64,000 nucleotides of DNA, taken from positions 2,812-66,811 of the forward strand of contig VMGE01000006.1 in the NCBI GenBank assembly GCA_007376395.1. The letters run 5' to 3'. Shown one piece after another: positions 11,924 through 64,000 of the stretch. The first letter of the stretch is position 1, and each line of letters begins with the position of its first letter. A program made the position numbers and the translations under genes. Under the pieces are notes generated by a model. The model was not told the DNA's origin, ran no database searches, and worked only from the letters and a program-made list of their open reading frames with translations. The DNA comes from Microgenomates group bacterium Gr01-1014_5 (GTDB lineage Bacteria > Patescibacteriota > Microgenomatia > UBA8517 > UBA10165).

Positions 11924-11961
11924 AACAAGATAATATCATAAATATGTTAATATAAGTGTAA

Positions 11962-36019: not shown

Positions 36020-36021
36020 TT

Positions 36022-40272: not shown

Positions 40273-40277
40273 ATATA

Positions 40278-41501: not shown

Positions 41502-41550
41502 GTAGCGCTTCGACTTCTTCCTCGGTATAATTACGCTAGAATTAGTCGTC

Positions 41551-43689: not shown

Positions 43690-43696
43690 TAGTGTA

Positions 43697-44011
43697 ATGA
43701 ATATAGGTAACACTGTCTCAAAAAATGGAGTTAAAATCCGCCTCACAGAAGAACGGTGGAAACATATTGTTCTTATGCATCCAGGTCTTATTGGCAGACA
43801 AAAGCAAGTTTTAACAACAATAAAAAATCCAGACTATGTTTTCAGGGGTGGAGCTGAAGAGATATTAGCAGTTACAAAAGTTTCTCTAAGAAGATATCTT
43901 GTGGTAATATACAAAGAGACAGAAGCTGACGGATTTATTATCACAGCCTATGAAACAACCGATACTCGTTGGCTGTTTAAGAAAGAATTAATATGGAACA
44001 AGCATTTGTAA
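43697..44011 (+). CDS. DUF4258-like small protein (putative toxin of a two-gene module)
   Basis: 104 aa with ...VVIYKETEADGFIITAYE, typical of DUF4258-type toxins. Confidence 0.35.
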   Translation: MNIGNTVSKNGVKIRLTEERWKHIVLMHPGLIGRQKQVLTTIKNPDYVFRGGAEEILAVTKVSLRRYLVVIYKETEADGFIITAYETTDTRWLFKKELIWNKHL

Positions 44012-48007: not shown

Positions 48008-48421
48008 TCACCCGGTAAATTCACCGTCGAGAATTTGATTAACTAAAGTGTCTGCCTCACGGTTTTGGGCGCGGGGAACATTTCTGTAAACTATTTTTTG
48101 TCCAATATCTTTTTCCAGCTTCTTTGCCGTTTGTGCAAGTTTTTGTAAAGTTAAGTTCTTAATTTTATAAATACCGTTTAACTGGTTAACGATTAGTTGC
48201 GAGTCGAGGACAAAAACAAGTGACTGGTCTGTGGGATTATCTGTAACCCACAACAGTGCTTCAATAACGGCTGAGTATTCGGCAACGTTGTTGGTGGCGA
48301 CTCCTAAAAGTTTCCCCGATTTATAAATCACTTTTCCGCCGACGGTGACTACAAAAGCTGCTGCGGCGCGTCCTGGGTTACCGCGGCTGGCGCCGTCACA
48401 ATGAATAATTATTCCGCCCAT
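48008..48421 (-). CDS. rnhA: ribonuclease HI
   Basis: CDGASRGNPG, NNVAEYSAVIEAL, DSQLIVNQ and READTLVNQ carry the catalytic DEDD residues. Confidence 0.85.
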   Translation of the reverse strand: MGGIIIHCDGASRGNPGRAAAAFVVTVGGKVIYKSGKLLGVATNNVAEYSAVIEALLWVTDNPTDQSLVFVLDSQLIVNQLNGIYKIKNLTLQKLAQTAKKLEKDIGQKIVYRNVPRAQNREADTLVNQILDGEFTG

Positions 48422-48422
48422 G

Positions 48423-49718
48423 TTAAATTTTCTTTTTTACTAATTCTAAAAATGTTTTTGGGAAAGAGGTGACAGACGGCAAAACGCCAAGACTTTTCCA
48501 AATCACCAAAGTAGATATTAACAAAACTAAAACCTCTGTTGCAACGGTTGCATATGCCGCCGCTGTAAACGAGTATTGCCGGACAAACATTAAATTGACT
48601 AAAACATTAAAACTAAGTGCGGTAAGGGCTATTGCTAGTGAGATTTTTTGACGTCCTGCGGCAATGAGCGAAAATCCCGTTAAGTGGTTAAAATACGCAA
48701 TAAAAGCCGCAACGCTTAATATTCTTAAGACTCCGGTTGCCGGGTTATTTGCAGAGCCGGCAAGGATTCCGACGATTACAGGTGCAAAAATAAAAATTAG
48801 TAAAAACGCCGACAGGGCAAATAGTAATAGTAAGTCGAAGGCTTTTTGATAATAAATCGCAATCTTGTTTGATTTTTCGGCAAACTCCCGGGCCAAATGG
48901 GGGAATATGGCGTTCATTAAAAATGCCGCTCCCAGGACTGCGTTGTCGTAAACTTTATACGCCAAGGCATAAGGAGCGACTTCTGCGTTCCCTTGAAAAT
49001 ACTGCAGAATAACGATATCAATACGGTTGTAAAGAGAAAAGGTAATAAGCAGTGCTCCTGTGGGAATAGCCGCCGAAGAGACAGACTTAATAATTTTCCA
49101 GTCAAGCGTCCAGTTTATCCGGGAAACTTTTCCAGCTAAAAACATGCCAATTACCCCAACGACAATAGTTGCCAAAACCCAGGCAAACATTATGAAATTT
49201 AAATTTACAGGGGAGAGATAGACAAACAACAGAACCAGAATCAGAAAAACCAAGGATGCTAAAAAATCAACAACTGCCGACAGTTCAAGACGGAAAAGGG
49301 TTTGAAAAATCATTTGCGCAGAAGTTTTAAATGATAAAAAAAGCAAGACAAAAGAGGCGATTGTTGTTGGGGTAATCAGGTTTTGCCAAGCAGGGTTAGC
49401 GCGAACAAAGACGTTGACAAGCAGAAAACTAACAACAGCTAAAACAAAACGGAAAATAATTAAACTGCCAAAAATCTCGGGTTGTTTTTCTTTTTCTTGG
49501 GACGCTTGTTTGACGGTAATAATATTTGTACCCCAGTCTGAGATATGAGCAAAGAGGAGTACTAAAGCAGATATAAAAGAGTAAGCGCCAAACCCATCGT
49601 CTTTTAATAATCGGTATAAAACAGCCGTTAAAACAACCGAGACAAGAACCGTACCAAGCCTGCTTAATCCTTGGGCGAGAGTATTTTTCAAGACACCGGA
49701 AAAAACTTGCATTACCAA
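48423..49718 (-). CDS. oligosaccharide flippase (Wzx/MOP superfamily, polysaccharide biosynthesis protein)
   Basis: 431 aa, ~12 TM, with the Wzx-like N-terminus. Confidence 0.65.
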   Translation of the reverse strand: MVMQVFSGVLKNTLAQGLSRLGTVLVSVVLTAVLYRLLKDDGFGAYSFISALVLLFAHISDWGTNIITVKQASQEKEKQPEIFGSLIIFRFVLAVVSFLLVNVFVRANPAWQNLITPTTIASFVLLFLSFKTSAQMIFQTLFRLELSAVVDFLASLVFLILVLLFVYLSPVNLNFIMFAWVLATIVVGVIGMFLAGKVSRINWTLDWKIIKSVSSAAIPTGALLITFSLYNRIDIVILQYFQGNAEVAPYALAYKVYDNAVLGAAFLMNAIFPHLAREFAEKSNKIAIYYQKAFDLLLLFALSAFLLIFIFAPVIVGILAGSANNPATGVLRILSVAAFIAYFNHLTGFSLIAAGRQKISLAIALTALSFNVLVNLMFVRQYSFTAAAYATVATEVLVLLISTLVIWKSLGVLPSVTSFPKTFLELVKKKI

Positions 49719-49836
49719 TACAGGATATATGATTCTAGGACGATTGGGGAGTACCGTCTAAAAAATTACCCGCGGGGCTTTACCCCGTTAGAAGCCTAAT
49801 TTCTCGAGAGACTGGCAAGAACAGACCCCTTTGTTT

Positions 49837-50298
49837 CTAACGGGGCTTTACCACTAAATGCCGCTCTCTTCCTTCGCCTTCTGATTCGGTGATTATTTGC
49901 GGGTCTTCTGACAAAACCATGTGTACGAAGCGCCTTTGTGAAGAAGTTAGGTCGTAAATCGTATAAGGGTCTCCGGTTTGTTTAACACGTTCCGCGGCCT
50001 GCTCAGCCATGCTTTTTAACATCTCCTGTTGTTTGGTTCTGTAATCTCCGGTGTCCACCAATACTCTTTGCCATTCTCCGGTTTGCCTTTGCAGAATTTG
50101 CCCCAAGACAACTTGAAAAGCAGAGATTGTTTCGCCGTGCCTGCCAATCAAAATCCCTGCATCGTCGGTTGTAATATTTACCGACAAAGCCTCGTTTTCT
50201 TTATCCTCGCCAACCACAACACTCCCCTTAACGCCTAGTAAATCCAGGAGTTTTTGGGCTGTCTTTTTAATTTCGGTTTTGCTGTCCTTTGCCGCCAT
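49837..50298 (-). CDS. jag: RNA-binding protein Jag/KhpB (KH + R3H domains)
   Basis: GVKGSVVV...LSVNITTDDAGILIGRHGETISAFQ (KH) and YTIYDLTSSQRRFVHMVL (R3H). It sits at the end of the rnpA-yidC operon. Confidence 0.8.
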   Translation of the reverse strand: MAAKDSKTEIKKTAQKLLDLLGVKGSVVVGEDKENEALSVNITTDDAGILIGRHGETISAFQVVLGQILQRQTGEWQRVLVDTGDYRTKQQEMLKSMAEQAAERVKQTGDPYTIYDLTSSQRRFVHMVLSEDPQIITESEGEGRERHLVVKPR

Positions 50299-50366
50299 TA
50301 TGAGGATTTTATGGCAAATCTAAGTAGTATGCAATACAAGATGCCATACAATAGATCTGTCAAGAT

Positions 50367-51161
50367 CTATTTTACCAGATTTAGGCGTGTAAGCCAAGGG
50401 GTAAGGCCTCCCCAGCCAGAAGCGTAATATTGCTGGATAGTTTGAGCTAAAGAAAGAGCTGTCCAATAAAGCACTAAACCTGAAGCAAAACTAACACCCA
50501 CAAAAAGTGTCATTAGAGGAAAAAGGTAAAGCGCTTGTTTTTGGAATGACGCCATCATATCGTCGGTTCCTTCTTTTGTTTTCTTGGCTATCTTTTCCGC
50601 CTTTTTAATTTCTGGCATCATTATTAAAGCAGACAAAAATTGCACGATTGCTGAGAAAATAAGGAGCGGTCCTGGGAGGGGAATAGGCAAACCGGGAACC
50701 CGGAAAACATCGGGCTGGGTTAAATCCAGATAAAAAAACTTAGTCTGAACAGGTTCGCTCAAATGCAATCCTGAATAAGCAAACTTGTTTAAACTTTCTG
50801 TTGGATTGCTTGTCGCAAACATGCCAAACACGCCAACTAAGGCAAACAACACTACCAGTTGGATTATCTGCGGCAAACAGCCGGCCGCCGGATTTACGCC
50901 GTGCGTTTTATAAAGATCGGCCTGCGCCTGCATTAGTTTTGTCTTATCACCCTTGTGGCGTATTTTTAACTTTTCCAACTCTGGGGCCAGTTCTTTCATT
51001 CTTTGCATGGCTTTCATTGATGGATGGGTTAGGGGAAGCATAATTAGTTTTATAGCAACCGTGAGGGTAATAATTGCCCAACCTAAACTGCCGGTCAGTT
51101 GGTAAAACACCAAAAGACCGTTAACAAGAGGACCGACAAATATGGTTTGCCAAATATTCAT
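50367..51161 (-). CDS. yidC: membrane protein insertase YidC (short form)
   Basis: 264 aa with YidC/Oxa1 core motifs (...KMKELAPELEKLK..., PLQ...). Confidence 0.85.
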   Translation of the reverse strand: MNIWQTIFVGPLVNGLLVFYQLTGSLGWAIITLTVAIKLIMLPLTHPSMKAMQRMKELAPELEKLKIRHKGDKTKLMQAQADLYKTHGVNPAAGCLPQIIQLVVLFALVGVFGMFATSNPTESLNKFAYSGLHLSEPVQTKFFYLDLTQPDVFRVPGLPIPLPGPLLIFSAIVQFLSALIMMPEIKKAEKIAKKTKEGTDDMMASFQKQALYLFPLMTLFVGVSFASGLVLYWTALSLAQTIQQYYASGWGGLTPWLTRLNLVK

Positions 51162-51201
51162 AAGTTAGGTTGTAGGGAATAGGGTATAGCGAATAAAGAT
51201 C

Positions 51202-51405
51202 TTATCTACAATTCAATATTCTAACTAATCCCAAACTTAATCCTTTAGTTATTCCGTTTTTTTTGACTGCCTCATATGTATATTGCGAACAAGTAGGGAA
51301 GTGGCGGCACACTGGGCGGCCAAAGACCAGAAACCTGCCCAACCCGGTGTCAAACGATAAATACTTTTGATATAGCCTAATTAAAAATAATACAATTTTT
51401 GACAT
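51202..51405 (-). CDS. yidD: membrane protein insertion efficiency factor YidD
   Basis: ...FGRPVCRHFPTCSQYTYEAVKKNG... Confidence 0.8.
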   Translation of the reverse strand: MSKIVLFLIRLYQKYLSFDTGLGRFLVFGRPVCRHFPTCSQYTYEAVKKNGITKGLSLGLVRILNCR

Positions 51406-51412
51406 ACAAAAA

Positions 51413-51745
51413 TTAAGACACTTTCGTTAAAACTTCCCGGGCGTCTTTGTTTAAAACCCCGTGTGTTTGCAGATTTGCCTGAGGTTTGGCCAAAAACACC
51501 CCAAGTATACCACTTGGGAGATTTTCCAACATTTCTTGGGCTGCGGCACGTGCGGCCCGCCTTATCTTATTTCTCTCTACAGCTTTTTTTGAAATTTTGT
51601 TTGAAACAATCATACCCACCCTTTTTTCCGGCTTTTCTGTGATTATGTAAGAGAACGCATAATATTTTGTGTGTTGAATTTTACCCTGCTTTAACACAGT
51701 TTGAAAATCAGCTTTAAGAGTTAAACGGTTTTTTTTAGGAAGCAT
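51413..51745 (-). CDS. rnpA: ribonuclease P protein component
   Basis: 110 aa with ...NKIRRAARAA... in a conserved position after rpmH. Confidence 0.8.
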   Translation of the reverse strand: MLPKKNRLTLKADFQTVLKQGKIQHTKYYAFSYIITEKPEKRVGMIVSNKISKKAVERNKIRRAARAAAQEMLENLPSGILGVFLAKPQANLQTHGVLNKDAREVLTKVS

Positions 51746-51746
51746 T

Positions 51747-51884
51747 TCAAGAGGAGAGTTTTTTTCGGCCGACCTTGCGCCTGCTTTTTAAAACCCGGCG
51801 GCCGTTCTTTGTTTTCGAGCGCGCGCGATATCCAAGAGCTCTCTTGCGGGATATCTTTTTTCCTTTAAAGGTTCTCTTTGGCAT
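51747..51884 (-). CDS. rpmH: 50S ribosomal protein L34
   Basis: The reverse complement translates [45 protein letters not shown]. It is below the ORF-track size cutoff. Confidence 0.85.
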
Positions 51885-52087
51885 ATCTCTCCAATTTTAC
51901 ATCTTTAAACAAAACTAATGCAACCTTAAACACGCCTTTCGTATATTTTCGGGGTTGACGCCATTGTGGATAACTTATATATTAGTGTATAGTTTTTAGT
52001 TGTTAGCGGATAGGCTCCTACCCCATACTTCCTGTCTAATTTTATAGTCTCCTACAACCTAAACGCTATTAGCTAAAACCTAAAAAC
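51885..52087. other. rpmH-dnaA divergent intergenic region, candidate oriC part 1 (perfect DnaA box TGTGGATAA at 51965..51973)
   Basis: AT-rich region with one consensus DnaA box between the divergent rpmH and dnaA genes. Confidence 0.45.
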
Positions 52088-53476
52088 ATGGACACTCAAA
52101 AACTTTGGAAAGATGTACTTGAAACAATTAAAGTTTCTGTTTCGGGAGCTAACTATTCTACTTGGTTGTCCCAAACTTTTATTATTTCAGTCAAACCAGT
52201 AGGAGAAACAGGTCTACCTGCCGATAGGCAGGTCGTCGAAATCGGCTGTCCAAACGCTTTTATTGCCGACGGGTTGGAAAAAAGGTATTTTACGCTTATC
52301 CAAGACTCTCTAAACCAGGTTACGGGTATAAAAAACGAGGTAGTCTTCAGTGTTCAACAAATCCAAAATGAAACAAAAAAAACAATTGAGTCTCCTTTGT
52401 TTTCCCAAAATTTACAAAGTGAAGAAAAATCTTTAGAAGACGATTTAAAAAAAGCACGAATCCGCCCAGGGTTTACTTTCGAAAACTTTGCCGTCTCCTC
52501 GTCAAACCAAATGGCCCACGCCGCGGCCGATGCTGTTTCTAAAAACATCGGGAACGCCTACAACCCTTTGTTTTTTTGGGGAGGAGTGGGTATAGGAAAA
52601 ACCCATTTAATGCTGGCAATAGGCAACTATTTTTTGCGCCACAATCCTGACGGAAAGGCACTTTACGTTATGGGTGAAGAATTTACAACAGAGATTGTAG
52701 AAGCCATTAGAAATAAAAATACACAAGAGTTCAAAAAAAGATACCGCAGTTTAAAGCTTTTAATGCTTGACGATGTACAATTTATCGCTGGAAAAGAAAA
52801 GGTGCAAGAAGAATTTTTTCACACCTTCAACACTATTCTGCGCGAAGGGGGACAGGTGGTATTAACTTCTGACCGGCCTCCAACAGAAATTCAAAAATTA
52901 GAAGACCGCTTAAGAAACAGGTTTGAAGCAGGGATGATTGTCGACATTTCTCCTCCTGATTTTGAGTTAAGAACGGCGATTTCTTTAATTAAAGCCCAAC
53001 AAAAGGGGATGATGTTAGACATGGATGTGGCCCAAGCCATCGCCGCCAACATAGACAACCCGCGCAAAATCGAGGGTTTTTTGACAAGACTACTTGCCGA
53101 AACCAATAGTTTTAAAGAAAAGATTACGATAGAGCTTGTTAATAAAATCTTAGGGAAAACAAACGGCGTCTTAATTACTCCCCAAAGAAAAGCAACACTG
53201 CCGCAAGAGCTCATCGACGCTGTTTGTGATTATTTTTCTTTAGGAAAAAGAAAACTCCTTAGCGATACACGCACGCGTCCCGTTGCCCACCCGCGGCAAA
53301 TCCTTATGTATCTCTTACGTGTTGAACTTGGCCTGCCTTTACAAGAAGTTGGTAGGCTTGTTGGAGGACGCGACCACACCACCGTTATGCACGCTGTGGG
53401 CAAGATATCTACAAACTTATCCACAAACGGCGGGTTGAGGGATGATATTTTGGGGATAAAAAAATACATTTCTTGA
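52088..53476 (+). CDS. dnaA: chromosomal replication initiator DnaA
   Basis: AAA+ Walker A GGVGIGKTHL, box VII, and a C-terminal DNA-binding domain. Confidence 0.95.
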   Translation: MDTQKLWKDVLETIKVSVSGANYSTWLSQTFIISVKPVGETGLPADRQVVEIGCPNAFIADGLEKRYFTLIQDSLNQVTGIKNEVVFSVQQIQNETKKTIESPLFSQNLQSEEKSLEDDLKKARIRPGFTFENFAVSSSNQMAHAAADAVSKNIGNAYNPLFFWGGVGIGKTHLMLAIGNYFLRHNPDGKALYVMGEEFTTEIVEAIRNKNTQEFKKRYRSLKLLMLDDVQFIAGKEKVQEEFFHTFNTILREGGQVVLTSDRPPTEIQKLEDRLRNRFEAGMIVDISPPDFELRTAISLIKAQQKGMMLDMDVAQAIAANIDNPRKIEGFLTRLLAETNSFKEKITIELVNKILGKTNGVLITPQRKATLPQELIDAVCDYFSLGKRKLLSDTRTRPVAHPRQILMYLLRVELGLPLQEVGRLVGGRDHTTVMHAVGKISTNLSTNGGLRDDILGIKKYIS

Positions 53477-53481
53477 TAAAT

Positions 53482-53604
53482 TATGGATAACTTTAAGAGT
53501 TATGAACAGGGAGTTCAAATGGTTAACATTTTTATACAGAAATTGTGCTTCTTGCTTTCAACAATAAAAAAGGCGAAAATCAAAGCTGTTGTCCACTTGT
53601 CCAC
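53482..53604. promoter_or_regulatory. DnaA-box cluster in the dnaA-dnaN intergenic region (candidate oriC part 2)
   Basis: TATGGATAA (53482-53490), TTGTCCAC (53588-53595) and TTGTCCACA (53596-53604), each one mismatch from TTATCCACA, in a 255-nt AT-rich spacer. Confidence 0.5.
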
Positions 53605-53731
53605 ACAACACTACTACAACTACTAGTTAATAATACAGTGAATAGGAAGTAACAAACAGCAAGTAGAAAATCGAATATCTATAATATATTGACCGTAAAC
53701 CCTATAAACTGTACGCTATGCGCTAAGAGCT

Positions 53732-54835
53732 ATGAAAGTAAAAGTTTTACAAGAAGATTTACTAAAAGGTTTAAGTTGTGTCTCGCGTTTTGTTTCAGTA
53801 CGGGCACAGCTTCCTGTTTTGTCAAACATTCTTCTAAAAGCCGAGAAAGGGAAACTTAAACTAGGAGCTACAAATTTAGAAACGGGAATTGTTTTTGAGG
53901 TAGGCGCAAAAGTAGAAGAAGACGGACTACTTACCGTACCTGCAAAAGTTTTACTCGAACTAACGGCTAATTTACCCCCAGGACAAATCACTCTATCCTC
54001 AGAACAAGAGCAGTTAAAAGTGTCTTCTGGTTCGTTCCAAGCCCAACTATCCGGAATTTTAGCTTCTGAATTTCCTTCCATTCCAGACAAACTAGACCAC
54101 ACAGATTTCACCATCTCTGGAGATGTATTGCAGTTAATTAATAAACAAGTGGTCTTTGCCGCGGCCCAAGATGACTCTAGGCCTATTTTAACCGGAGTTC
54201 TGTTTAAATTTTCTGAAGATAATTTAAGAGCTGTAGCCACAGACGGATTTAGGCTTTCATCCAAAGAGCTCGTTTTTAAAAAAATAGCCGCAGACAAAAA
54301 AACCTTACTTGTACCAGCCAAACTTTTAGACGAGCTCTACAAAATAGTAGGAGGACAGGAGATAAAAGTCGCACTCATGGAGCGCGAAAAACAAATAATG
54401 TCAGAAGCCGAGTCTTTGGTGCTTACGGGGAGGCTTTTGGAAGGGGACTACCCGGATTTTGAAAGAATTATCCCCAAAAACACTCCTCATAAAGCAAGCG
54501 TCGACAGGGAGGCTTTTGTCCGTGCTATACGCGCAGCGGCTGTTTTTGCCCGTGAGGCCTCCGGTATTATTAAATTGGTCATGGAAAAAGACAAGATTAT
54601 AGTTGTCGCCGAAAGTCCTCAATACGGTCGTGAAGAGTCGGAAGTAGAGGCGAGGGTTGAAGAGGGAGGAATTACAATAGCTTTTAACTACCGCTATATA
54701 CTTGATTTTTTAAATTCAGTCACCGGTCAGGAAATATCAATAGAAACCGAAGGGCCAACAGCACCTGGTGTTTTTCGCGACACAAAAGACCCGTCTTATC
54801 TTCATTTGATTATGCCGTTCAAGATTCAAAACTAA
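53732..54835 (+). CDS. dnaN: DNA polymerase III beta sliding clamp
   Basis: 367 aa, MKVKVLQEDLLKGL... with a three-domain beta-clamp layout. Confidence 0.9.
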   Translation: MKVKVLQEDLLKGLSCVSRFVSVRAQLPVLSNILLKAEKGKLKLGATNLETGIVFEVGAKVEEDGLLTVPAKVLLELTANLPPGQITLSSEQEQLKVSSGSFQAQLSGILASEFPSIPDKLDHTDFTISGDVLQLINKQVVFAAAQDDSRPILTGVLFKFSEDNLRAVATDGFRLSSKELVFKKIAADKKTLLVPAKLLDELYKIVGGQEIKVALMEREKQIMSEAESLVLTGRLLEGDYPDFERIIPKNTPHKASVDREAFVRAIRAAAVFAREASGIIKLVMEKDKIIVVAESPQYGREESEVEARVEEGGITIAFNYRYILDFLNSVTGQEISIETEGPTAPGVFRDTKDPSYLHLIMPFKIQN

Positions 54836-55431
54836 TAACCGTCGGGAGAAAAATCAATTGTTAAGTCTTTCCCCCAAACTGCTAAAAATTGCTCCATAGT
54901 TTGAGGGGAGAAATACCAGGACTCGTAAATTAAACCAGAATCTTCATGAGCAACAACGACAACTCCGCGCCCTGCCCAAACATAAGTTTTAAAACCAACG
55001 CTTTTATGCTCTCCCCAAAACTCTCTCTCTGAAGGTCCGTATTTTTGCCGGAACGAGGCGATGTTTCCATTTCCTAAAATACGGTCTTTAATAAGAACAG
55101 TACTTGTTCCTGAGAATAAAACCTCATGCTCTGGTCCGTCGCTTTGGCTAGGGTAGAGAAACTTAAGATAATCTCCTTCAGGCACTACTGTTTTAGGCTC
55201 TCCTAGTTTTTGCCTGACCTGTTCTGTCGTTGTTGTTCCGGGAGTTATTTCGTTCCAGGAGGGTGTAGGAGGCGGCGTGGGGGTTTGAACCATTTCTTGC
55301 GGTTTAGAAAGAAAGATTTTTGCCAAGACGACAATCGTAGCCATAAAAGCCAAAAGAATCAGGAGCCAATTTCTTTTTAAAAAACTGGGCTTTTTTTGTT
55401 CGGTACTTTGGTTTTGAAAAGTGTTTTCCAT
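54832..55431 (-). CDS. membrane-anchored hypothetical protein
   Basis: N-terminal TM and a Pro/Thr linker. It overlaps the dnaN stop by 4 nt (convergent). Confidence 0.4.
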   Translation of the reverse strand: MENTFQNQSTEQKKPSFLKRNWLLILLAFMATIVVLAKIFLSKPQEMVQTPTPPPTPSWNEITPGTTTTEQVRQKLGEPKTVVPEGDYLKFLYPSQSDGPEHEVLFSGTSTVLIKDRILGNGNIASFRQKYGPSEREFWGEHKSVGFKTYVWAGRGVVVVAHEDSGLIYESWYFSPQTMEQFLAVWGKDLTIDFSPDGY

Positions 55432-56120
55432 TAATCTTGTTGTCCAAAAATATTATTACGGGCAAATTGATAATGTAAAGGCCACTTGTTTGGCATTTCG
55501 AAAATGTTAGTTGCGCCTAAAAACTTAAATTCGCGTCTGATAATGTAAAGACCTATTGTTTCGGCAAAATCCTCGTCGATAATGTTAATATTGTTTAGAT
55601 ATTTACTTGGGTAAGTAGGAAGGATACCTTCTTTAATTGTAGCTCCTGAGTTTGCAAAACCAGAAAAAGCAACAGCTCCGTCTACTTTTGCATATACGTG
55701 AGCAGACTCGTGAGAAAGCGTGTAAGACAGCTGGTGAATGCCCGCAAATGCTTTGTCGAACAAATAAATATCCTTTCCGATGACGTGCCCGCTTTCTCCT
55801 TCCTTAGCGACAGTGCCTCTAAACACCCTAATTGCCCCTTGGTTGCAAAGAGTTGCTGTGTATGTTTTGTATTGAGCTATTCTAGCGGCCGCGGCTGCTA
55901 CCTCGGCTTTATCTTCAGGCGTCCACCCCTTACCTCCTTCCGCAAAAGTGAAGCACCCTATCGGAGGGTTTCCGATAATTACCGTAGCTGTTTTCGAAGT
56001 AGACTCTCCTGAAGGGCCGTCTTCGACGTCAGCCGTAACCGTAACTTTGTGGCAATGTGTGATTTCCCGTGCTGGGTTCTGGGGGGTTGTTTTTGCCATA
56101 CACAGAGAATTTTTCAGCAA
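55431..56120 (-). CDS. hypothetical protein with HExxH motif (putative metallopeptidase-like)
   Basis: Contains LSHESAHVYAK. An alternative start MAKTTPQ lies at 56099. Confidence 0.4.
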   Translation of the reverse strand: MLKNSLCMAKTTPQNPAREITHCHKVTVTADVEDGPSGESTSKTATVIIGNPPIGCFTFAEGGKGWTPEDKAEVAAAAARIAQYKTYTATLCNQGAIRVFRGTVAKEGESGHVIGKDIYLFDKAFAGIHQLSYTLSHESAHVYAKVDGAVAFSGFANSGATIKEGILPTYPSKYLNNINIIDEDFAETIGLYIIRREFKFLGATNIFEMPNKWPLHYQFARNNIFGQQD

Positions 56121-56245
56121 GGCGGATATTTTTCAGGTTTTTCTCTTTGGCGGTAACAGTAATGGTGTATTTAACTTCTGCCGGTAAAGCGCTGTTTGGC
56201 AGGCTAACGGGTTCTGCTGTTTTTGTAACAGCAATGTATTTTGAT

Positions 56246-57889
56246 TCAGGAACCATACCAAGAGAAGTGTTTTCTTTGAGGAAGATTCCGTGGAATAGGG
56301 TGATGGCAAAAAACACCAAAAAGGCAAGAATGGCAAAAAACAATAGCCGTCCCGACAGGTCCAAGAGTAACGCCCGCAACCTTGGCAACCAAAAGACCGA
56401 CATTTTTAAGTACACCACCGGCGTGTTTGAGTTGAGCAAGTGCCAAAGATGCGCTTGCCCCCCCTGCCGCAATTGCCATAGGTGTGGGTAGGAACGGAAT
56501 GCTTGCCGCCAGAGCTCCGGACATTGACCAGCGCAGCCAGCCAATGTTGGGGTTAGTAAACAACTGGCGCAGTTTTATCGAGAGGGAGGAGAGGAGGTTT
56601 TGCCGTATCCTTTTAGCCTCTTGTCCAGCAAAGCGTGTTGCTTGTTCTGCCGCAAAACCTTTTTCTTCTAAGGTTTGCCTTAAATGCCCGGGAAGCGACG
56701 AGATTAAGCTTTCTTTAGTCTCTCTTCGTTTTTCAAGGCTCTGGGTTGTTTCGTTAAATTCAAGCCTTTGTACTTGGTCTGCCACCTCGTCTAAGTTTTG
56801 GAGCGCCTGTTCTAAGTTTTCAGGAGTGACGAAATCAACACTTTCGAGCGCTATACCCGTCTCGATTAATTGCTCAACCCTGTTTTCTATTGCCTGGAAA
56901 ATTGTGGAATACTTCCGGTAGTTTTGCGGTTCGTCCGTTTTAATCCTTGCAAGTTCTGATCTAATTAACTGTAAACTGTCCTGCGTTGGGTCTTTTTGTT
57001 TACCAAACCAGGAAAAAGGCGAAAGTTGCCCGGCAAAAGTTCTCCAATACGGCTGTCCCCGGTATATAAGATAAAGATGTTCTTGTTGTCTCGATGCTTG
57101 GCGCTCCTCTTGTTTTTCCGGTTGTTGGTCTTCTTCTCGTGTTTGCGCCCGGATTGGCCTTGGGGTTTTGACATACGGTGAAGGAGTGCTCGACGGCGCA
57201 GTTTGCAGGCGCTCTGTGATTTGTTCGACTTGGGCACGGGTAACAATGGCGCCGCGCCTGGAGAGAAAAGTTTCAACTCTTTCTTGTAAGGCTTGCGGGC
57301 TTAAAACCAGTCCCTCACCTGTTGTTAGTTTGACGTATTGGTTAATTTGCTCGGCTGTTTGTTTGGCGATATTTTCCTCAACACCCGCCTCACGGATTAT
57401 AGCCTCAATGTTTTTAAGGCTGTCTTGCTCGGCAAAATCTGCAATACGGTCTCCTAGAGCCTCTTCCGGCAGATCTGGGCGAATAGGAATAAGAGAAGGG
57501 CTTTCTCTTTGGTAGACAACCGCTTCGGTTTTAAGCCGGGCAAGGTTTTCTTTAATTTGCAGGGCTTGATGCTCGCGCCAGCTTGTATCGTGGAGAGCTT
57601 TTTCGCGCAGAAATTTCTCATGGCTTTCGATAAGAATTTTTAACTGATCGGCGTTGGGGACTGCGGCAGTTGGTAGCGCCTGCTCATTTAAACTTGCGAG
57701 GCTCTCAAGCCGGTCCAGAACAACCCCGATCTCGTTGGTGTTGAAATAAAGCTGGCCATAAGCCGTCAAAAGTTTTTGGTAATTTGCCAAAGTAAAACCT
57801 TCGACCTCTTCCTTGTTAAAACGGGTGAACTGCTGGTAATTATTTAAGAGCTCGCGGGCGATGTTTGGAGTGAGGATTAAATTGTCCAT
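56246..57889 (-). CDS. large coiled-coil protein with hydrophobic C-terminus, associated with the T4SS-like cluster (VirB6/TrbL-like role possible)
   Basis: About 440 aa of helical, charged sequence then hydrophobic segments. Its 3' end overlaps an alternative-frame hydrophobic ORF (56029..56544) near an A6 run at 56331-56336. Confidence 0.4.
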   Translation of the reverse strand: MDNLILTPNIARELLNNYQQFTRFNKEEVEGFTLANYQKLLTAYGQLYFNTNEIGVVLDRLESLASLNEQALPTAAVPNADQLKILIESHEKFLREKALHDTSWREHQALQIKENLARLKTEAVVYQRESPSLIPIRPDLPEEALGDRIADFAEQDSLKNIEAIIREAGVEENIAKQTAEQINQYVKLTTGEGLVLSPQALQERVETFLSRRGAIVTRAQVEQITERLQTAPSSTPSPYVKTPRPIRAQTREEDQQPEKQEERQASRQQEHLYLIYRGQPYWRTFAGQLSPFSWFGKQKDPTQDSLQLIRSELARIKTDEPQNYRKYSTIFQAIENRVEQLIETGIALESVDFVTPENLEQALQNLDEVADQVQRLEFNETTQSLEKRRETKESLISSLPGHLRQTLEEKGFAAEQATRFAGQEAKRIRQNLLSSLSIKLRQLFTNPNIGWLRWSMSGALAASIPFLPTPMAIAAGGASASLALAQLKHAGGVLKNVGLLVAKVAGVTLGPVGTAIVFCHSCLFGVFCHHPIPRNLPQRKHFSWYGS

Positions 57890-57894
57890 TGTTC

Positions 57895-59484
57895 TTACTT
57901 AACTTCTTCAACCTGATAAATTGGCTTATTTACGGTGATGGGAATAGCTGTTGGGGTGGGTATGGGTGTTTGCATCTCTTGTTCTTTACGTTGGCGCAGT
58001 AAGACTTCTTCCGGCTTGGTAGAGATCAGGGTGTGTTCTTCTTCTGAGGCAACAATACGTAGGGCAACGTGGTTTGGGCCGGCAAAAAAGATACCTTCGC
58101 CAACGTCTGCCGCGAGCAGGAGCTGTTTTTCTCCCTCCGAGAGTTTAAAGACTTCAGCAACGCGCTCAATGGCGGCAGGGGACTGTTTCATTAATAGTTT
58201 GAGAGCAGAATTAGTTACAATTGCCTTGCCTATATCCTGAGACAGGAAATCTTCTACGTCTTGGGTGATAGTTATCAAGCCCAGGTAGTATTTACGGGAA
58301 CGTTTGGCAACAGAATAAAGGAATTGGGCTGTATCCGGGTAGCGCATCATGTGCCAGGCCTCGTCAACAATCAGGAGGCGTTTTTTGAGATCGCGCTTAA
58401 TACGGTTCCAAATAAAATCTAAGATAACAAACATGGCGATTGGACGGAGAGTCTCTTCTAAATCGCGCACGGAAAAAGTAGTAAACGGATTTTTTAAATC
58501 AATATTAGTGTGCTGGTCAAAAATTCCGGCAAAAGAGCCTTTAATAAATTTTTCAATGCGGTCGGCGAGCGAACGGGCAATGGGATCCTCCATTCCTAAA
58601 AGAGTTTTATACAAATCTTCCATTAAAGGCGGAGTCTTGGTTTGAGTCTGGGGGTCTGGAGTAATCCCTTTTGCTTTGTAGGTTGCGATAAACGCCCGGT
58701 CTAAAAGCGCCTCTTCTGTCGGGTTGAGTTTGCCCATAATAACCGAGAACAAAGAGTGTAAAGAAAGTATTTTTAAACCCAGAGTGCTTTCTTCGGGATC
58801 TGCAACAGGGGTTAGTTCAAAAGGGTTAATTTTAGCCGGCGAGTTAAAAGAAAAAGAAATAAATTCTCCGCCAACCGCTTCTGTTAAAGGTTTGTATTCC
58901 GCCTCAGGGTCGATAATAAAAACTTCTGTTCCGAGCATTAAGGAACGTACAGCTTCCAGTTTAACAGCGTACGACTTTCCCGCGCCTGAAGTAGCGAAGA
59001 TTAAAGAATTATAGTTTTCCAGCCGAAAACGGTCAAAAATAACCAACGAATCGTTGTCTTCGTTAATTCCGTACAATACTCCCCGGTCTGAGCTCAACTC
59101 GGCAGAAACAAAAGGAAAAGTAGTAGCAAGGCTGGTAGTGTCCATATTGCGGGTTATGGATAATTTATCTATTCCCAAAGGGGTTGTTGAGAGTAAACCG
59201 TCTTCCATTTGCAGGGCGGTAAATTTTGCCACTATTAATAAAGAACCGAGCGTAGATTGTACTTGGTGAGTGATTTGGTTTAAGTCTTCCAGTGAATCAG
59301 CAGGAATTGTAATATAAAAAGAAAACTGAAAAAAGCGCTCTGCGCCTTTAACTAATTGTTCCTGCAGATCTCTGGCGTCTTCGAGTTTTGCCTGTGTTCC
59401 CGGATTAACTACTCTTCCGCGTTGTAAATCTGTGGCAATTTCTGCTTCCATCTCGGCAATTTTGCGCCGTAAATCGTCCAACAC
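57895..59484 (-). CDS. virB4: VirB4/TrbE/CagE-family conjugative-transfer ATPase, C-terminal portion
   Basis: Walker A ATSGAGKSY and Walker B LLIVDEAWHMM. The frame stays open upstream to a stop at 59674-59676 (...IFVGGYPRFVSPGWLDPI..). Confidence 0.8.
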   Translation of the reverse strand: MLDDLRRKIAEMEAEIATDLQRGRVVNPGTQAKLEDARDLQEQLVKGAERFFQFSFYITIPADSLEDLNQITHQVQSTLGSLLIVAKFTALQMEDGLLSTTPLGIDKLSITRNMDTTSLATTFPFVSAELSSDRGVLYGINEDNDSLVIFDRFRLENYNSLIFATSGAGKSYAVKLEAVRSLMLGTEVFIIDPEAEYKPLTEAVGGEFISFSFNSPAKINPFELTPVADPEESTLGLKILSLHSLFSVIMGKLNPTEEALLDRAFIATYKAKGITPDPQTQTKTPPLMEDLYKTLLGMEDPIARSLADRIEKFIKGSFAGIFDQHTNIDLKNPFTTFSVRDLEETLRPIAMFVILDFIWNRIKRDLKKRLLIVDEAWHMMRYPDTAQFLYSVAKRSRKYYLGLITITQDVEDFLSQDIGKAIVTNSALKLLMKQSPAAIERVAEVFKLSEGEKQLLLAADVGEGIFFAGPNHVALRIVASEEEHTLISTKPEEVLLRQRKEQEMQTPIPTPTAIPITVNKPIYQVEEVK

Positions 59485-59693
59485 TGTTTTTCCTTCAACG
59501 GGGTAGATAAAAAAAGAAAGGTCAAGGGAATGGTCAAAATTAATAATCGGATCAAGCCAGCCGGGAGAAACAAAGCGCGGGTAGCCGCCGACAAAGATAG
59601 TGCGCAGATATTTATCGTTTATTTTAATAGGGAGTTCCCGCGGCAGGAACCGCCTCGCTAAGGCTTTTGGCTTTCACGAATGGTACGCTAAGA

Positions 59694-60389
59694 TTAAACA
59701 TTGACCGGAACCTCCTTGCCGTTTTCTAACTTACCCTGAGCTTGTCGAATGGGTCGTCCGTCAGTCCGGTAGATATTATGGAAAAGCCGTGCTACCTCCT
59801 CGGTGGTGAGCTGTTGGACTTTAATTCCTAGACGCCCGGACTGGCGGATAACGTGGTCGCGTCTTGGAAAAAGCACGGTTTTGGCCTTTTTTAAGACATA
59901 GTCTTTGGGGTAAGGAACAGATCGTTGGCGGCGGGTTAGCGTATTAACCATTCCTGTTGTGGAAATTCCAAGTTCAAAAGGGGAGAAGGGAATAATAATA
60001 AAAAAATCTTTTTCTAAAACATTTCTCTTTTTGACAATTTGCGCAACAAAGGTTTGGTATGAGCCAATCAAAACTTTAAGTTTAGCGTTTGTCTGCTTGT
60101 CTGCCTCTTCTTTTAAGTAGTTAAGGTAGTTGGTGACATCTTTTTTTTGCGAACGCACTAAAATTTGGATTGCAAAGGAAAGCGAGTTTAAAAAAGCCGA
60201 ATACGCGTAAGTAATTGCTTCTTGTTCTTTTTCGGATAATAAAGAAAAGTTTAAGGCCGAAGCGCGCATAATGATTGCCGCTCCGCCTTCTTTTGTCAGC
60301 AAGATGTCGTCTGTAATGTCAGCAATTAAAATATGCTGTTGGGTGGTAGAGCTGATAGGCACAACCTTTGCTGGTTTAAGATTTAGCAT
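59694..60389 (-). CDS. virB4: VirB4-family N-terminal domain fragment (separated from the ATPase portion by a frame change)
   Basis: 231 aa resembling the VirB4 N-terminal region; its stop at 59694-59696 is in a different frame from the downstream ATPase ORF. Confidence 0.6.
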   Translation of the reverse strand: MLNLKPAKVVPISSTTQQHILIADITDDILLTKEGGAAIIMRASALNFSLLSEKEQEAITYAYSAFLNSLSFAIQILVRSQKKDVTNYLNYLKEEADKQTNAKLKVLIGSYQTFVAQIVKKRNVLEKDFFIIIPFSPFELGISTTGMVNTLTRRQRSVPYPKDYVLKKAKTVLFPRRDHVIRQSGRLGIKVQQLTTEEVARLFHNIYRTDGRPIRQAQGKLENGKEVPVNV

Positions 60390-60391
60390 TT

Positions 60392-60489
60392 TTCAAATTT
60401 CTAATTATTCTAATTGCTCTAATTTCTAAATAAATCCCAATTGTCCAATTTTTGGGTCAATTAGAAATTAGGTTAATTAGGTCAATTTT
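60392..60489 (-). repeat. ~95-nt dyad-symmetric intergenic repeat element, copy B (immediately upstream of the virB4 N-terminal fragment)
   Basis: Relative to the downstream gene it has the same orientation as copy A: aaaattgacctaattaacctaa...attagagcaattagaataattagaaat. Confidence 0.7.
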
Positions 60490-61589
60490 CATAGTTGTCT
60501 GGCTTTTATCTGTATTGGCGGAATCAGCCTTCCTTCGGCTTGAAATTGTATGGGGTCAAAAGTCAAACCGTCTTTTTCGGTCATGAGTTCGTAGCCGCCG
60601 TTTTTCAAGGGAGTTACGGTCATAAAGTGGCCAACTCTGTTGCTTCTAATTGCGCGGACAGGAGTTTTTGAAACAGAATCAATAATTTCCAAGATTGCGC
60701 CTTCGACGATTTTACCTTCGGCGGTTAAAACTTGTCCGACAATTGTGTTGGGAATTTCAGGAGGAGAAGGAGGCGCGGCCTCTGGACTAAAGACTGCCTG
60801 GGCGACAACCTGTCCGCTGCCTGATTGGTTTGCAAAAACAGGCGAAAGAGGTTGGATTGTTTCCTGTTGGGGCGCTTGCTGATTTTGGACTAGTGCAGAG
60901 TGTCCTACTTTTACAACTTGTTGAACCGGCACGGGCATGGCAGTATCTTCCGGCCGCACTGACCGCATATTTGGCGCGACTTGCTGTGCTATTTTTTGTC
61001 CCTGTACTTCTTGAGTAAGCACCATTCCTTGGGTAAAAGGTTCTGCTTGGCTTTTTACTCCCCCTGACATGGTGTTTTGATTAAAGGTTGTATTTGCACC
61101 CGATGTTGCTTGAGGAATTACGGCAAACATGGCGCTAACCTTTGAGAAAAAGTTTTTCTCTCCTTGTTCAAATTTTTTAACTTCTTCCGACTGGCCTGCC
61201 CCGGTCAGATCAGAGTCTGTTGTTGACAAGGTAATTGGTGTTGTGTCGGAAGAGGTAGATTTAGCAAAGACATCTTCGGCGCTATTTGCGTCCCAGGTGT
61301 AAAGGGTTGGTGAATAAATTGCTTTAACAAAAGCAAGAACCCATTGAGAAAGCGGACGTTCTTCTATTGGTAAAAATGCAAGTGCCGCTCCAAGTAGGCC
61401 AAAGAGTAGTACCAGAGGCCACTTGATAACCCCTGGCAAGGGGGTAGCATAAAAGATGAGTGATACTGTAATACCCCCGGCCAACTGGAAGAATTGCTTG
61501 AGGGTCATGTCTCCGACAAGCTTAAATTCATAGCTAGAAATGTGTTGCGGTACAGGATGCTGCTGCATTGCGACGAAGTCGCAAAACAT
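60489..61589 (-). CDS. PrgI/VirB3-like T4SS membrane protein with long Gln/Ser/Thr-rich C-terminal extension
   Basis: N-terminal HISSYEFKLVGDMTLKQFFQLAGGITVSLIFYA matches the PrgI-family signature; it lies directly upstream of virB4. Confidence 0.5.
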   Translation of the reverse strand: MFCDFVAMQQHPVPQHISSYEFKLVGDMTLKQFFQLAGGITVSLIFYATPLPGVIKWPLVLLFGLLGAALAFLPIEERPLSQWVLAFVKAIYSPTLYTWDANSAEDVFAKSTSSDTTPITLSTTDSDLTGAGQSEEVKKFEQGEKNFFSKVSAMFAVIPQATSGANTTFNQNTMSGGVKSQAEPFTQGMVLTQEVQGQKIAQQVAPNMRSVRPEDTAMPVPVQQVVKVGHSALVQNQQAPQQETIQPLSPVFANQSGSGQVVAQAVFSPEAAPPSPPEIPNTIVGQVLTAEGKIVEGAILEIIDSVSKTPVRAIRSNRVGHFMTVTPLKNGGYELMTEKDGLTFDPIQFQAEGRLIPPIQIKARQL

Positions 61590-61651
61590 ATATCGCTACG
61601 CGATAATTCATAAAGCAAAAAACATAAAAGTTATGCTCTTTGCAATATGTT

Positions 61652-62032
61652 TTATGTTTTACTCTTCTTTACCTCCAATCTTTTCATCATGGTTGTTAAC
61701 AGTTTTATAATTTCGAGGTTTTGTTCTGAAAATTCATCCAACCTTTTTCTGGGAAATAAATTAAGTTCAATTATTATTTCTAGCCAATAGTCAACCTCAA
61801 ATGCCGATCCTCTCGAAATCGAAATAAAACGTCTGTAGTCTTGTGAATAGTATCTACCATACCCTTCTGCTAAATTTGCTCCTTCAGAAGATATTGCTCG
61901 CACAAGCTGGTTGACTAAATATTTCAATATTCCGCGAAGCTCTTTTCCTTTGAAAAAACTTACAACATCTAAAGTGAGTTGCTTGCTTTTTTGATAAGCA
62001 GCGGATTTTTTATATGAGTAGGCAGTCTCCAT
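61652..62032 (-). CDS. four-helix-bundle protein (TIGR02436-like)
   Basis: Contains ...SEGANLAEGYGRYY..., the same family as 507..860 and 3224..3598. Confidence 0.6.
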   Translation of the reverse strand: METAYSYKKSAAYQKSKQLTLDVVSFFKGKELRGILKYLVNQLVRAISSEGANLAEGYGRYYSQDYRRFISISRGSAFEVDYWLEIIIELNLFPRKRLDEFSEQNLEIIKLLTTMMKRLEVKKSKT

Positions 62033-62143
62033 ATTTATGCTTTCTGTTTTGTGTTTTTTGTTCTAATCTAGCTACCGCTAGATTAGCATATGAAATCAGG
62101 ATTTCAAGGGAGCCTATTTTCACAAGCGAAGAATTAAAGACTT

Positions 62144-63112
62144 TTACCTTAAACCGAGGTCGTATTCAAGGTTGCACTTCAAGCAAACATTGCACCCGCC
62201 ATCTTCTGCTCCCCAGACATATTTTTCAAAGCCGCAAGAGGCGCATGCCCGCCGCGTTTTAAATTTATCGATGTTCTGCAAAGTGGCAACTCCGGGAAAA
62301 GTGTCTGATGTCATAAGATTAAGCATTTCTGAATTTAATATGCCGGGACAGTCGCGGAGCTGGTTTATCAAATGTCCTCGGGCAATTATTTCCTGCTCGA
62401 TTTTTGCTCCTACAAAAACCTGCTCATACAAGGTCGAAGCTGATATTATAGCAGTGTGATTATTGCCAGCTATTTCTCGGCCGTCTTTGAGTGCGGCCAT
62501 TTTTTCTGCAGTTAATTGAGCGATAGTTTTTTTAGTTAAAGTTAAGACTAAATCGTTAAAAGTTTTGCCCTCCGGAAGATTAAATTCAACCGGTCTGTCG
62601 TTAAACTCTTCGTCGTCTAGTGAGTTGGGAGCATCGGCAAACGCTTCGTAAACTCTTACACATTGTGTCGGAGAAAGAGGCAGGCATACAGCAACACTTT
62701 GAACTCGTACAATGCCATTTTCTTCATACTTTCGGCTTACAACTACCCGCGACCATTTATAGAAGCCATCGACCCTTGAACTTATCCAGGCGAGACACTC
62801 AGCGTCGCTAAACGCCGCCCAGGAGACGGTTTCCGTGGTTGCTGTGTTTTCATTCTGATAAACGGGGTGATTTGTGCGGTTGGTATCAGTGAGCCGAACT
62901 AATTCCTCGAGCGTTGTCCAATAAATATTTGGCTTTCTTTGAAATTCAAGAATTACAGAAGCTAAATCTTGAGCGATTACTTCTTGAGATTTTTTCCAGT
63001 TTGCGACCGGTAGCGCTAGTTCTACATTCATAGTTTCCTGCTCGGGATGGTAACTGAAGGTTATTAGTTTTCCGGCTTCTCGTCGCTTCTCTCCTCGAAG
63101 TAAACTCCTCAA
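62144..63112 (-). CDS. hypothetical protein with C-terminal C4 zinc finger
   Basis: Contains CASCGFEKYVWGAEDGGCNVCLKC. The probable start is MNVELAL at 63031. Confidence 0.4.
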   Translation of the reverse strand: MRSLLRGEKRREAGKLITFSYHPEQETMNVELALPVANWKKSQEVIAQDLASVILEFQRKPNIYWTTLEELVRLTDTNRTNHPVYQNENTATTETVSWAAFSDAECLAWISSRVDGFYKWSRVVVSRKYEENGIVRVQSVAVCLPLSPTQCVRVYEAFADAPNSLDDEEFNDRPVEFNLPEGKTFNDLVLTLTKKTIAQLTAEKMAALKDGREIAGNNHTAIISASTLYEQVFVGAKIEQEIIARGHLINQLRDCPGILNSEMLNLMTSDTFPGVATLQNIDKFKTRRACASCGFEKYVWGAEDGGCNVCLKCNLEYDLGLR

Positions 63113-63247
63113 ATTTTTGAAGAATTTATATCGAGGGCTTTAGCCCGAGATACGGTTGCGGCACAGCTCCTGAATTGCACAGGATTCCTTAATCCTCCTT
63201 CGCTTAAAGCTACGGAAGGACGTTGCATAACCTTATTCAGTCAATTT

Positions 63248-63563
63248 ATGCTAGGTAAAGAAATTTTGCAAGGGGTGTTTTGTAGTAGAATTCTTATGTG
63301 CTTAAAAATCTCAGGTTGCGCAATATGAATTACCTATAAAAGTTGAACGCCAAAAAGATGGTGGTTTCGTAGTAACTTGTCCTTCCTGGTTTGATTGTTT
63401 TGCACAAGGCGACACAGTAGACGAAGCAGTCTTGGAAATGACGGTTGTTGCCCAATCTTTAATCTAGCTTTACAAAGAGGAGGGTATAGCAATTCCACTA
63501 AAAAAGGCAAAAAGTAAAAGCCTTAAGGAATTTTTTACTGTTCCTGTAAGAGTTTCTGTATGA
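63248..63563 (+). pseudogene. decayed hicA-hicB-like toxin-antitoxin remnant
   Basis: A HicB/UPF0150-like segment reads YELPIKVERQKDGGFVVTCPSWFDCFAQGDTVDEAVLEM, with the ATG in the +1 frame and an internal TAG at 63463. A short upstream MLGKEILQ...(frame change)...GCFVVEF is HicA-like. Confidence 0.4.
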
Positions 63564-63593
63564 GACCGCTTTCAGAAATGCTACATTTAATAT

Positions 63594-64000
63594 GTGTCTT
63601 ACGTAATTATTGACGAGAGCGGTCGTTTTGCAGATGCTTCAAGCAAAGTAATCGTTTTTTCTGCTCTTGTTACAGAATCTCTTGTTGGATTAGATAAAAT
63701 AGTCTTTCAAGCTAGAAGAAAGTTGCCGACCAAAAAGAAAGAACACACGCTTCCCGAAATTAAGTTCAGCAAAACTGGCGAGAATACTAAAAGACATCTG
63801 CTGCAGTCTATAACCAAGAGAGATATTGATATTTTCTCTCTTGTTGTTTTTACAGAGGGAAGAAAAATCCTAGATACGCCACAGAACTATGCTTTATTGG
63901 TTTCTGTGCTACTCGGTCTAGTAGTCAAAAGCGGCATAAAAATTAGCCACATTATTATTGACAGGCATTTTACTTGGACACGTCAGAGAGAGCAGTTCGA
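63594..64000 (+). CDS. DUF3800-family protein (5' part; continues beyond window end), GTG start
   Basis: VSYVIIDESGRFADASSKVIVFSALV...KFSKTGENTK... with the DUF3800 N-terminal IDESG motif. Confidence 0.5.
   Translation, partial: MSYVIIDESGRFADASSKVIVFSALVTESLVGLDKIVFQARRKLPTKKKEHTLPEIKFSKTGENTKRHLLQSITKRDIDIFSLVVFTEGRKILDTPQNYALLVSVLLGLVVKSGIKISHIIIDRHFTWTRQREQF

Follow-up and report, generated by a model that had tools for sequence, protein, structure and literature searches.

The stretch of DNA analysed here (the window) comprises 64,000 nucleotides of Microgenomates group bacterium Gr01-1014_5 (NCBI GenBank assembly GCA_007376395.1, contig VMGE01000006.1). Between positions 54832 and 61589 its minus strand carries a tightly packed set of five genes belonging to a type IV secretion system (T4SS), convergent with dnaN (53732-54835) and lying next to the likely replication origin. 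They follow one another in the order prgI-like, trsD-like, virB4, large membrane protein and small anchored protein. An initial annotation of the same DNA had proposed a T4SS-like set beside dnaN and the origin, of the type carried by candidate-phyla-radiation (CPR) bacteria; the convergent dnaN, the DnaA boxes and the GC skew bear out the placement, and the affiliation is supported by the comparisons below. The features are as follows, with protein lengths in amino acids (aa).

60489..61589, minus strand: PrgI/VirB3-like membrane protein, 366 aa, PrgI hairpin at the N terminus and CarboxypepD_reg-like beta-sandwich at the C terminus
59694..60389, minus strand: TrsD-like protein, 231 aa, equivalent to a detached VirB4 N-terminal domain
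57895..59701, minus strand: VirB4 ATPase gene, start ATG at 59701, overlapping the stop of the TrsD-like gene by 8 nt and broken here at 59629
55431..57889, minus strand: large gene, 867 aa when intact, split here into three open reading frames (ORFs) by deletions of 59 nt (56341) and 86 nt (56046-56050)
54832..55431, minus strand: small protein with an N-terminal transmembrane (TM) anchor, 199 aa, recognised from its ORF and hydropathy
53732..54835, plus strand: dnaN (sliding clamp), named DNA polymerase III subunit beta by NCBI; the identical gene of L008, an independent assembly, carries DNA_pol3_beta domains
52088..53476, plus strand: dnaA; Bac_DnaA domains on the identical gene

Components of the cluster and its conserved position

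The first gene encodes a membrane protein that is PrgI/VirB3-like, as had been proposed. Its match to the Pfam PrgI model is marginal when taken alone (E=2.7e-5, 25.1 bits, cut-off 27); the same family (PF12666) is matched by all of the 57 orthologues found at this position, at best with 2.2e-9, and CarboxypepD_reg by 46 of the 57. Across loci these orthologues share 36-54% identity. The TrsD-like ORF that follows is 53-56% identical to the N-terminal ~210 residues of the fused, ~800-aa VirB4 proteins of more distant Microgenomates; it matches the NCBIfam model TrsD (NF041427) with E=2.1e-10, under the model cut-off of 200 bits, and a TraC-like match (PF26593) is precomputed on the identical gene in L008. 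The third product is a VirB4-family ATPase (Pfam P-loop_TraG, E=1.5e-27) with Walker A (ATSGAGKS) and Walker B (LLIVDE) motifs; when intact (P0121, 630 aa), it reaches 376 bits with the NCBIfam model conju_CD1110, whose cut-off is 325. A VirB4-family ATPase with a PrgI/VirB3-like protein adjoining it and a TrsD-like protein associated with it are expected of a Patescibacteria-type, MPF_FATA-related T4SS core, and all three are found here.

The initial annotation was thus right to see a VirB4 ATPase; its reading as a single gene did not stand, as the locus holds a TrsD-like ORF and an ATPase ORF, and the 529-aa ORF with a GTG start (57895-59484) proved to be an artefact of an 86-nt deletion discussed below. 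Among 85 related loci, VirB4 is split in 76 and fused in 6; because the split is so widely shared, the two genes with their 8-nt overlap represent the normal, conserved architecture and not decay. It is also the reason to reject the ‘PFDKLRVS’ reading, in which a frameshift, a pseudogene or a small insertion would separate the two VirB4 ORFs. In some close relatives (P0002, P0084 and P0098), of which P0002 shows 97% identity across the part that matched, VirB4 reaches ~1240 aa; its Intein_splicing domains and LAGLIDADG homing-endonuclease domains indicate an intein within the ATPase.

The last gene of the set encodes the membrane-anchored protein that had been noted there. This 199-aa protein has no significant Pfam or NCBIfam match, and a small TM-anchored gene occupies the same position in nearly all related loci, where its orthologues carry Big_5 in 14/61 cases and PEGA in 2/61. 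A BamE-like hint (E=0.061) was too weak and was not used.

Just two perfect DnaA boxes occur in the window, at 51965 and 53417, the second of which belongs to a box cluster at 53417-53605, and the cumulative GC skew reaches its minimum and turns at 52-55 kb. The boxes and the skew minimum at the dnaA region make an origin assignment reasonable, and oriC likely lies in the intergenic DNA flanking dnaA. From this position it follows that the cluster is on the lagging strand of the right replichore, with transcription directed at the origin. At the origin-facing end of the set, the stop codons of the small T4SS gene and of dnaN overlap by 4 nt (54832-54835), which leaves no room for terminators, and the 3' ends of these two genes also abut in most related loci (L004-L089).

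To quantify the conservation of this arrangement, a VirB4 alignment was used to scan one genome for each species, which returned 80 loci; flanking genes were counted in the 61 (including L004-L008) that have at least 8 kb of sequence downstream. A convergent dnaN follows virB4 after 0.2-5.7 kb (median 3.2 kb) in 58 of these 61 species-level genomes, which span Woesebacteria, Blackburnbacteria, Curtissbacteria, Shapirobacteria, Gottesmanbacteria, Amesbacteria and Chisholmbacteria; the chromosomal site near dnaA/dnaN seen in the window is thus theirs as well. In almost all loci, the interval from virB4 to dnaN is occupied by precisely two genes, a large one and a small TM-anchored one. Four more distant contigs, whose VirB4 proteins are 59-82% identical, show PrgI, (TrsD), VirB4, the large and the small gene, then a convergent dnaN-dnaA and rpmH, rnpA, yidD, yidC and jag, and L008 has the same synteny from PrgI to jag as L004-L007. 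Neither GC content nor tetranucleotide usage shifts in the windows covering the T4SS genes (z = -1.2 to 0.04), and the other genes of the 64 kb are housekeeping genes. The region is thus very probably the vertically inherited chromosomal core of a Patescibacteria-type, MPF_FATA-related T4SS that lies at its usual Microgenomatia site by dnaN/oriC; it most likely serves epibiotic interaction with a host, and its broken ORFs are most likely due to assembly errors.

Broken reading frames in the deposited assembly

In the deposited metagenome-assembled genome (MAG), a 547-aa ORF (56246-57889), an unlisted 171-aa ORF (56029-56544) and a 229-aa ORF with an HExxH motif (55431-56120) are pieces of one gene. 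In three-frame translation these ORFs continue one another across frames, and VirB4-like sequence is found in frame upstream of the GTG start of the VirB4 ORF. A related strain (L001-L003, 85-95% DNA identity) has instead a single 870-aa gene and a 637-aa VirB4 gene. Proteins identical to the PrgI-like, TrsD-like, 199-aa and DnaN proteins are encoded on two independently assembled contigs, k139_75408 of the European Nucleotide Archive (ENA; 257.5 kb) and a Logan contig of SRR8863434, and both assemblies encode a VirB4 of 630 aa and a large protein of 867 aa. Compared with window positions 48040-64000, these two assemblies (L008 and L009) differ by a single mismatch over 16 kb, apart from three segments that the window lacks:

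at 59629: 86 nt missing, in virB4
at 56341: 59 nt missing, in the large gene
at 56046-56050: 86 nt missing, in the large gene

The lengths of all three deletions are not multiples of three and the reading frame is broken each time; the junctions display a microhomology of just 1-5 nt each. Over 15 kb elsewhere (5271-12444 and 35910-43898), the window is identical to independent contigs, with zero indels. The fragments have been carried into the NCBI annotation of the deposited MAG (TSC88761, TSC88762, P0145). Owing to the deletions the T4SS genes look fragmented, and this is what misled the reading made from the sequence only: the ~550-aa coiled-coil membrane protein and the HExxH protein, taken there for separate genes, both belong to the one gene of 867 aa. 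The comparison thus serves as a correction to a deposited genome that displays T4SS genes in pieces.

Local assembly errors in the deposited MAG are most likely the source of the three deletions, a reading that can be held with good confidence from the sequence comparison. It is favoured because three independent deletions with hardly any accompanying substitutions (1 mismatch in 16 kb) would make an improbable history, and because the affected stretch is the one most similar to a related strain, with 95% identity where the flanks have 85-91%; in such places graphs built from short reads of mixed strains are most likely to break and be mis-joined. One observation weighs against it: all three deletions fall within 3.6 kb of the ~31 kb compared, a mild non-randomness for which our own estimate is roughly p~0.04. 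The alternative is that the deletions are real and that the MAG represents a population or subpopulation with an inactivated T4SS, in which virB4 and the large gene are knocked out. The deposited MAG does carry them, NCBI did annotate the fragments, two adjacent T4SS genes are struck within those 3.6 kb with about 27 kb of other compared sequence free of indels, and the microhomology at the junctions is minimal. Such a population is nevertheless unlikely, as the ENA and Logan contigs, otherwise identical, carry intact genes and the remaining reading frames show no further decay. Were the deletions real, they would reveal a T4SS-null subpopulation, even though the organism is thought to depend on the system.

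The large gene and its exchangeable hydrolase domain

The intact large gene starts 5 nt past the virB4 stop. Its 867-aa product begins with a helical, Q/E-rich region of ~480 aa, continues with about three hydrophobic helices (residues ~450-556) and an Ig-like segment, and ends in an HExxH domain, in which HESAH is found at residue 775, along with a TYP...EDFAE motif. Word-indexed searches for homologues returned 3 proteins for the whole protein and 1 for the HExxH domain; the family was found by an exhaustive HMMER search, in which the 867-aa protein has 562 relatives, most of them aligned to residues ~460-865 only. A full-length AlphaFold2 model built on a 3-sequence alignment was unusable, with a predicted local distance difference test score (pLDDT) of 37, and no inference is drawn from it on the N-terminal region or the TM bundle. 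Profile matches of the helical region to CagX, huntingtin and syntaxin in the PDB were set aside as compositional or coiled-coil noise, their bias scores being as large as the scores themselves.

For the C-terminal 204 residues, an AlphaFold2 model built on 89 aligned sequences reaches a pLDDT of 91 and a predicted template modelling score of 0.85. In Foldseek it comes closest to the Pro-Pro endopeptidases and to anthrax lethal factor (probability 1.0, TM-score ~0.55), and the predicted structure has the zincin fold of M34 peptidases, with the HExxH motif and the downstream Glu/Tyr. At the level of sequence, no Pfam or NCBIfam peptidase model matches the domain, and its PDB profile matches are marginal and confined to the motif region. 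The domain is thus modelled as an M34/ATLF-like zincin fold, and an identity of 14-19% to these peptidases falls short of showing it to be a member of the family. It further differs from anthrax lethal factor and PPEP-1/2/3 in being tethered to a T4SS membrane protein and not secreted, and in its two conserved cysteines. With >500 detectable relatives, it would define an unannotated family of zinc peptidases.

Other genomes fill the same slot differently. Among the positional orthologues of 59 species, Peptidase_M23 is found in 23, CHAP in 9, NAGPA in 5, Amidase_2 in 2 and NlpC/P60 in 1, and the HExxH domain is present at full length in 15/59 (this organism and 14 others). The middle region with the TM helices and the Ig-like segment is homologous to that of an M23-bearing protein (L005), at 25% identity over 444 aa. 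Since positional orthologues carry differing hydrolases on a homologous middle region, the sequences identify the slot as one that holds an exchangeable, putatively extracellular hydrolase.

This raises the question as to whether the large protein corresponds to the wall hydrolases of known T4SSs. It is encoded beside virB4 and combines a membrane anchor with a catalytic domain predicted to be extracytoplasmic; no SLT, CHAP, M23 or amidase domain is found in the 867-aa protein itself with Pfam or NCBIfam. By analogy, it may fill the VirB1/PrgK/TraG-type wall-hydrolase role, as suggested by its position and its orthologues and not by the peptidase. Two points weigh against such an assignment, namely that a wall-opening role rests on position and on the domains of orthologues, and that the nearest structural relatives of the peptidase cleave proteins, not peptidoglycan. 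The large protein departs from the hydrolases of monoderm systems in its ~3 TM helices, its extended helical region at the N terminus and the exchangeability of its catalytic domain. A more specific, tentative possibility is that the gene encodes an envelope-spanning T4SS subunit particular to Microgenomatia, in which a three-TM scaffold would bear a long cytoplasmic helical arm and a swappable extracellular tip (M23, CHAP, amidase, NAGPA or the M34-like peptidase) tuned to the host envelope, the M34-like tip cutting surface proteins of the host or of the cell itself and not peptidoglycan. If the cassette did partly set the host specificity of CPR epibionts, it would offer a handle on an open question.

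Function and descent of the system

The T4SS and its origin-proximal position have already been published, in a survey of 3,035 Patescibacteria genomes (PMC12102498; Quiñonero-Coronel et al. 2025, Microb Genom 11:001409). According to the parts of that survey drawn on here, the VirB4 proteins of Patescibacteria form a monophyletic clade nested in MPF_FATA, TrsD is the most abundant accessory component, PrgI/VirB3 homologues are abundant, VirB6 is scarce in Microgenomatia and relaxases are very few. The genes dnaN, dnaA, rnpA and rpmH are reported there to be enriched near virB4 in Microgenomatia and Paceibacteria, which is read as a possible gene-dosage effect. The whole operon in the window is oriented head-on to replication from oriC, which is odd for genes thought to be favoured by origin-proximal dosage.

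In light of these reports and of a 2025 review (PMC12857230), the cluster is an instance of an already described system. It shares with the Patescibacteria clade of the survey an MPF_FATA-related VirB4, adjacent TrsD-like and PrgI/VirB3-like proteins, the lack of a relaxase and of a type IV coupling protein, and the site by dnaA/dnaN/rnpA/rpmH; nothing essential differs from what those parts of the survey describe, apart from the fragmentation of this copy by three deletions in the deposited assembly. What the window and its relatives add is the quantified conservation of position (58/61), the conserved module of one large and one small gene, and the hydrolase-cassette pattern with its unannotated M34-like peptidase family; the cassette gene after virB4 and the M34-like variant are not spelled out in the same parts of the survey.

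The closest functional precedent is the T4SS of Southlakia epibionticum ML1 (Wang et al. 2023 Cell, via PMC12102498 and PMC12857230), a homologous locus that is, per the 2025 review, essential for epibiotic growth on the host. As far as these secondary accounts describe it, that locus likewise has VirB4, TrsD-like and PrgI-like proteins, with peptidase/lysozyme genes right downstream of virB4. S. epibionticum belongs to Saccharimonadia, and its locus adds VirB6, a VirD4-like protein and a VirB2-like pilin array, none of which were found in the window. The monoderm systems of pCF10, pIP501 and CTn2 (PrgI, the VirB4 protein PrgJ/TraE and the hydrolase PrgK/TraG, with TrsD known from pGO1) have in common with the cluster a homologous VirB4, a PrgI-family hairpin, a TrsD-like protein and a membrane-anchored hydrolase beside the ATPase. 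In contrast to them, the system as seen in the window has no relaxase, coupling protein, VirB6 (PrgH), VirB8-like protein (PrgL) or adhesin, and it is chromosomal and fixed at oriC.

By analogy with Saccharibacteria, epibiotic interaction with a host is the most likely purpose of the system. A hexamer of the VirB4 ATPase would be docked at the membrane by the PrgI/VirB3-like hairpin together with the TrsD-like domain; the large protein would cross the membrane about three times and expose its Ig-like stalk and exchangeable hydrolase outside the cell, where the hydrolase may make way for the apparatus by opening the wall of the cell itself or of its host. Here a zinc peptidase with a lethal-factor/Pro-Pro-endopeptidase-like fold would fill the hydrolase slot. 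Because no relaxase or coupling protein is found nearby, the machine is not regarded as a conjugation device.

Several observations count against this interpretation. The function is extrapolated from Saccharibacteria, another class; the PrgI-like protein falls just short of the Pfam cut-off; and no VirB6-, VirB8- or VirB2-like component is recognised in the window with Pfam or NCBIfam, so that the apparatus is incomplete by canonical standards. Profile searches of the hypothetical proteins for VirB6/TrbL, VirB8 and VirD4, suggested as a check in the initial annotation, found none, and no TrbL/VirB6, PrgH or T4SS_pilin match was obtained among the scanned window proteins; the window ends 2.4 kb upstream of prgI. 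In the relative L007 (1-119), a T4SS_pilin (VirB2-like) gene lies ~10 kb upstream of prgI and is followed by large unannotated genes; the equivalent region of L008 shows no recognisable pilin.

A different function has to be weighed, in which the machine is an importer of host DNA or of other macromolecules, like the archaeal Ced system, and not an exporter or contact apparatus. The missing relaxase and coupling protein, weak matches of VirB4 to the CedB (8e-12) and CedD (6.6e-7) models and the lack of nucleotide synthesis in CPR bacteria would all suit such a role, as would a 2026 preprint that ties VirB4 to the transfer of macromolecules from the host and describes tubular, T4SS-pilus-like structures at the contact site. 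However, the VirB4 protein meets the CD1110-type conjugation model and not the Ced models, the Patescibacteria clade nests in MPF_FATA in the survey's account, and the T4SS of S. epibionticum is essential, yet loss of comEC-dependent DNA uptake is tolerated (PMC12857230). The window itself gives no indication of the direction of transport, and import appears rather improbable.

The proposal, made in the initial annotation from the position at the origin and nearby toxin-antitoxin remnants, that the cluster is the remnant of an integrative/conjugative element (ICE) inserted there is already refuted at the timescale of this lineage, by the condition that the same annotation had set for its rejection, leaving it a very slim chance. 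In its favour, VirB4 and PrgI derive from conjugation machinery, the variable flank upstream of prgI holds a hicB pseudogene, a DUF3800 gene and a 23S_rRNA_IVP gene, and the survey (PMC12102498) proposes that the system was acquired horizontally from monoderms in the distant past. Against it, the gene set occupies an unchanged place in 58/61 species-level genomes of relatives instead of being patchily distributed, the deviation in GC and tetranucleotide composition looked for as a sign of foreign DNA is absent, no relaxase or type IV coupling protein (VirD4) has a Pfam or NCBIfam match among the ORFs of the cluster or the other window ORFs scanned, no integrase was detected among the latter (att repeats were not specifically searched for), and the VirB4 phylogeny follows class taxonomy in the same parts of the survey. 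Any transfer would thus predate the class, and ‘element’ is no longer a useful description for a cluster best understood as a vertically inherited part of the chromosome.

The variable flank upstream of prgI contains the following features:

61652..62032, minus strand: 23S_rRNA_IVP/four-helix-bundle gene (Pfam 5.2e-22, TIGR02436 1.6e-25)
63315-63560, plus strand: HicB-like antitoxin remnant (HicB_lk_antitox 4.6e-5, below cut-off) with an in-frame stop at ~63465

The four-helix-bundle gene was correctly recognised from the outset; it belongs to the variable flank and is no T4SS component, and only a minority of related loci, L001, L006 and L013 among them, have a 23S_rRNA_IVP-type gene as the direct upstream neighbour of prgI. 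At least three 23S_rRNA_IVP/four-helix-bundle genes occur in the 64 kb, including those at 3224-3598 and 61652-62032, both on the minus strand. As to the decayed hicAB that had been suggested, the hicB part holds, and since L008, assembled independently, shares its in-frame stop, the pseudogene is real; for the hicA remnant there is no family match. A DUF3800 gene is present in the flank, as had been listed, with a marginal match (6.4e-4).

Elsewhere in the window, the compositional outlier is the interval 13001-19000 (GC 0.48-0.52, tetranucleotide z up to 2.6), which coincides with a 1754-aa protein (13156-18420) containing three DUF5667 stretches. Many MAG records with Microgenomatia-type loci (L010, L013, L015, L018, L023 and others) are titled ‘uncultured Gammaproteobacteria’, ‘Bathyarchaeia’, ‘Clostridia’ or ‘Alphaproteobacteria’, and such titles are unreliable for taxonomy.

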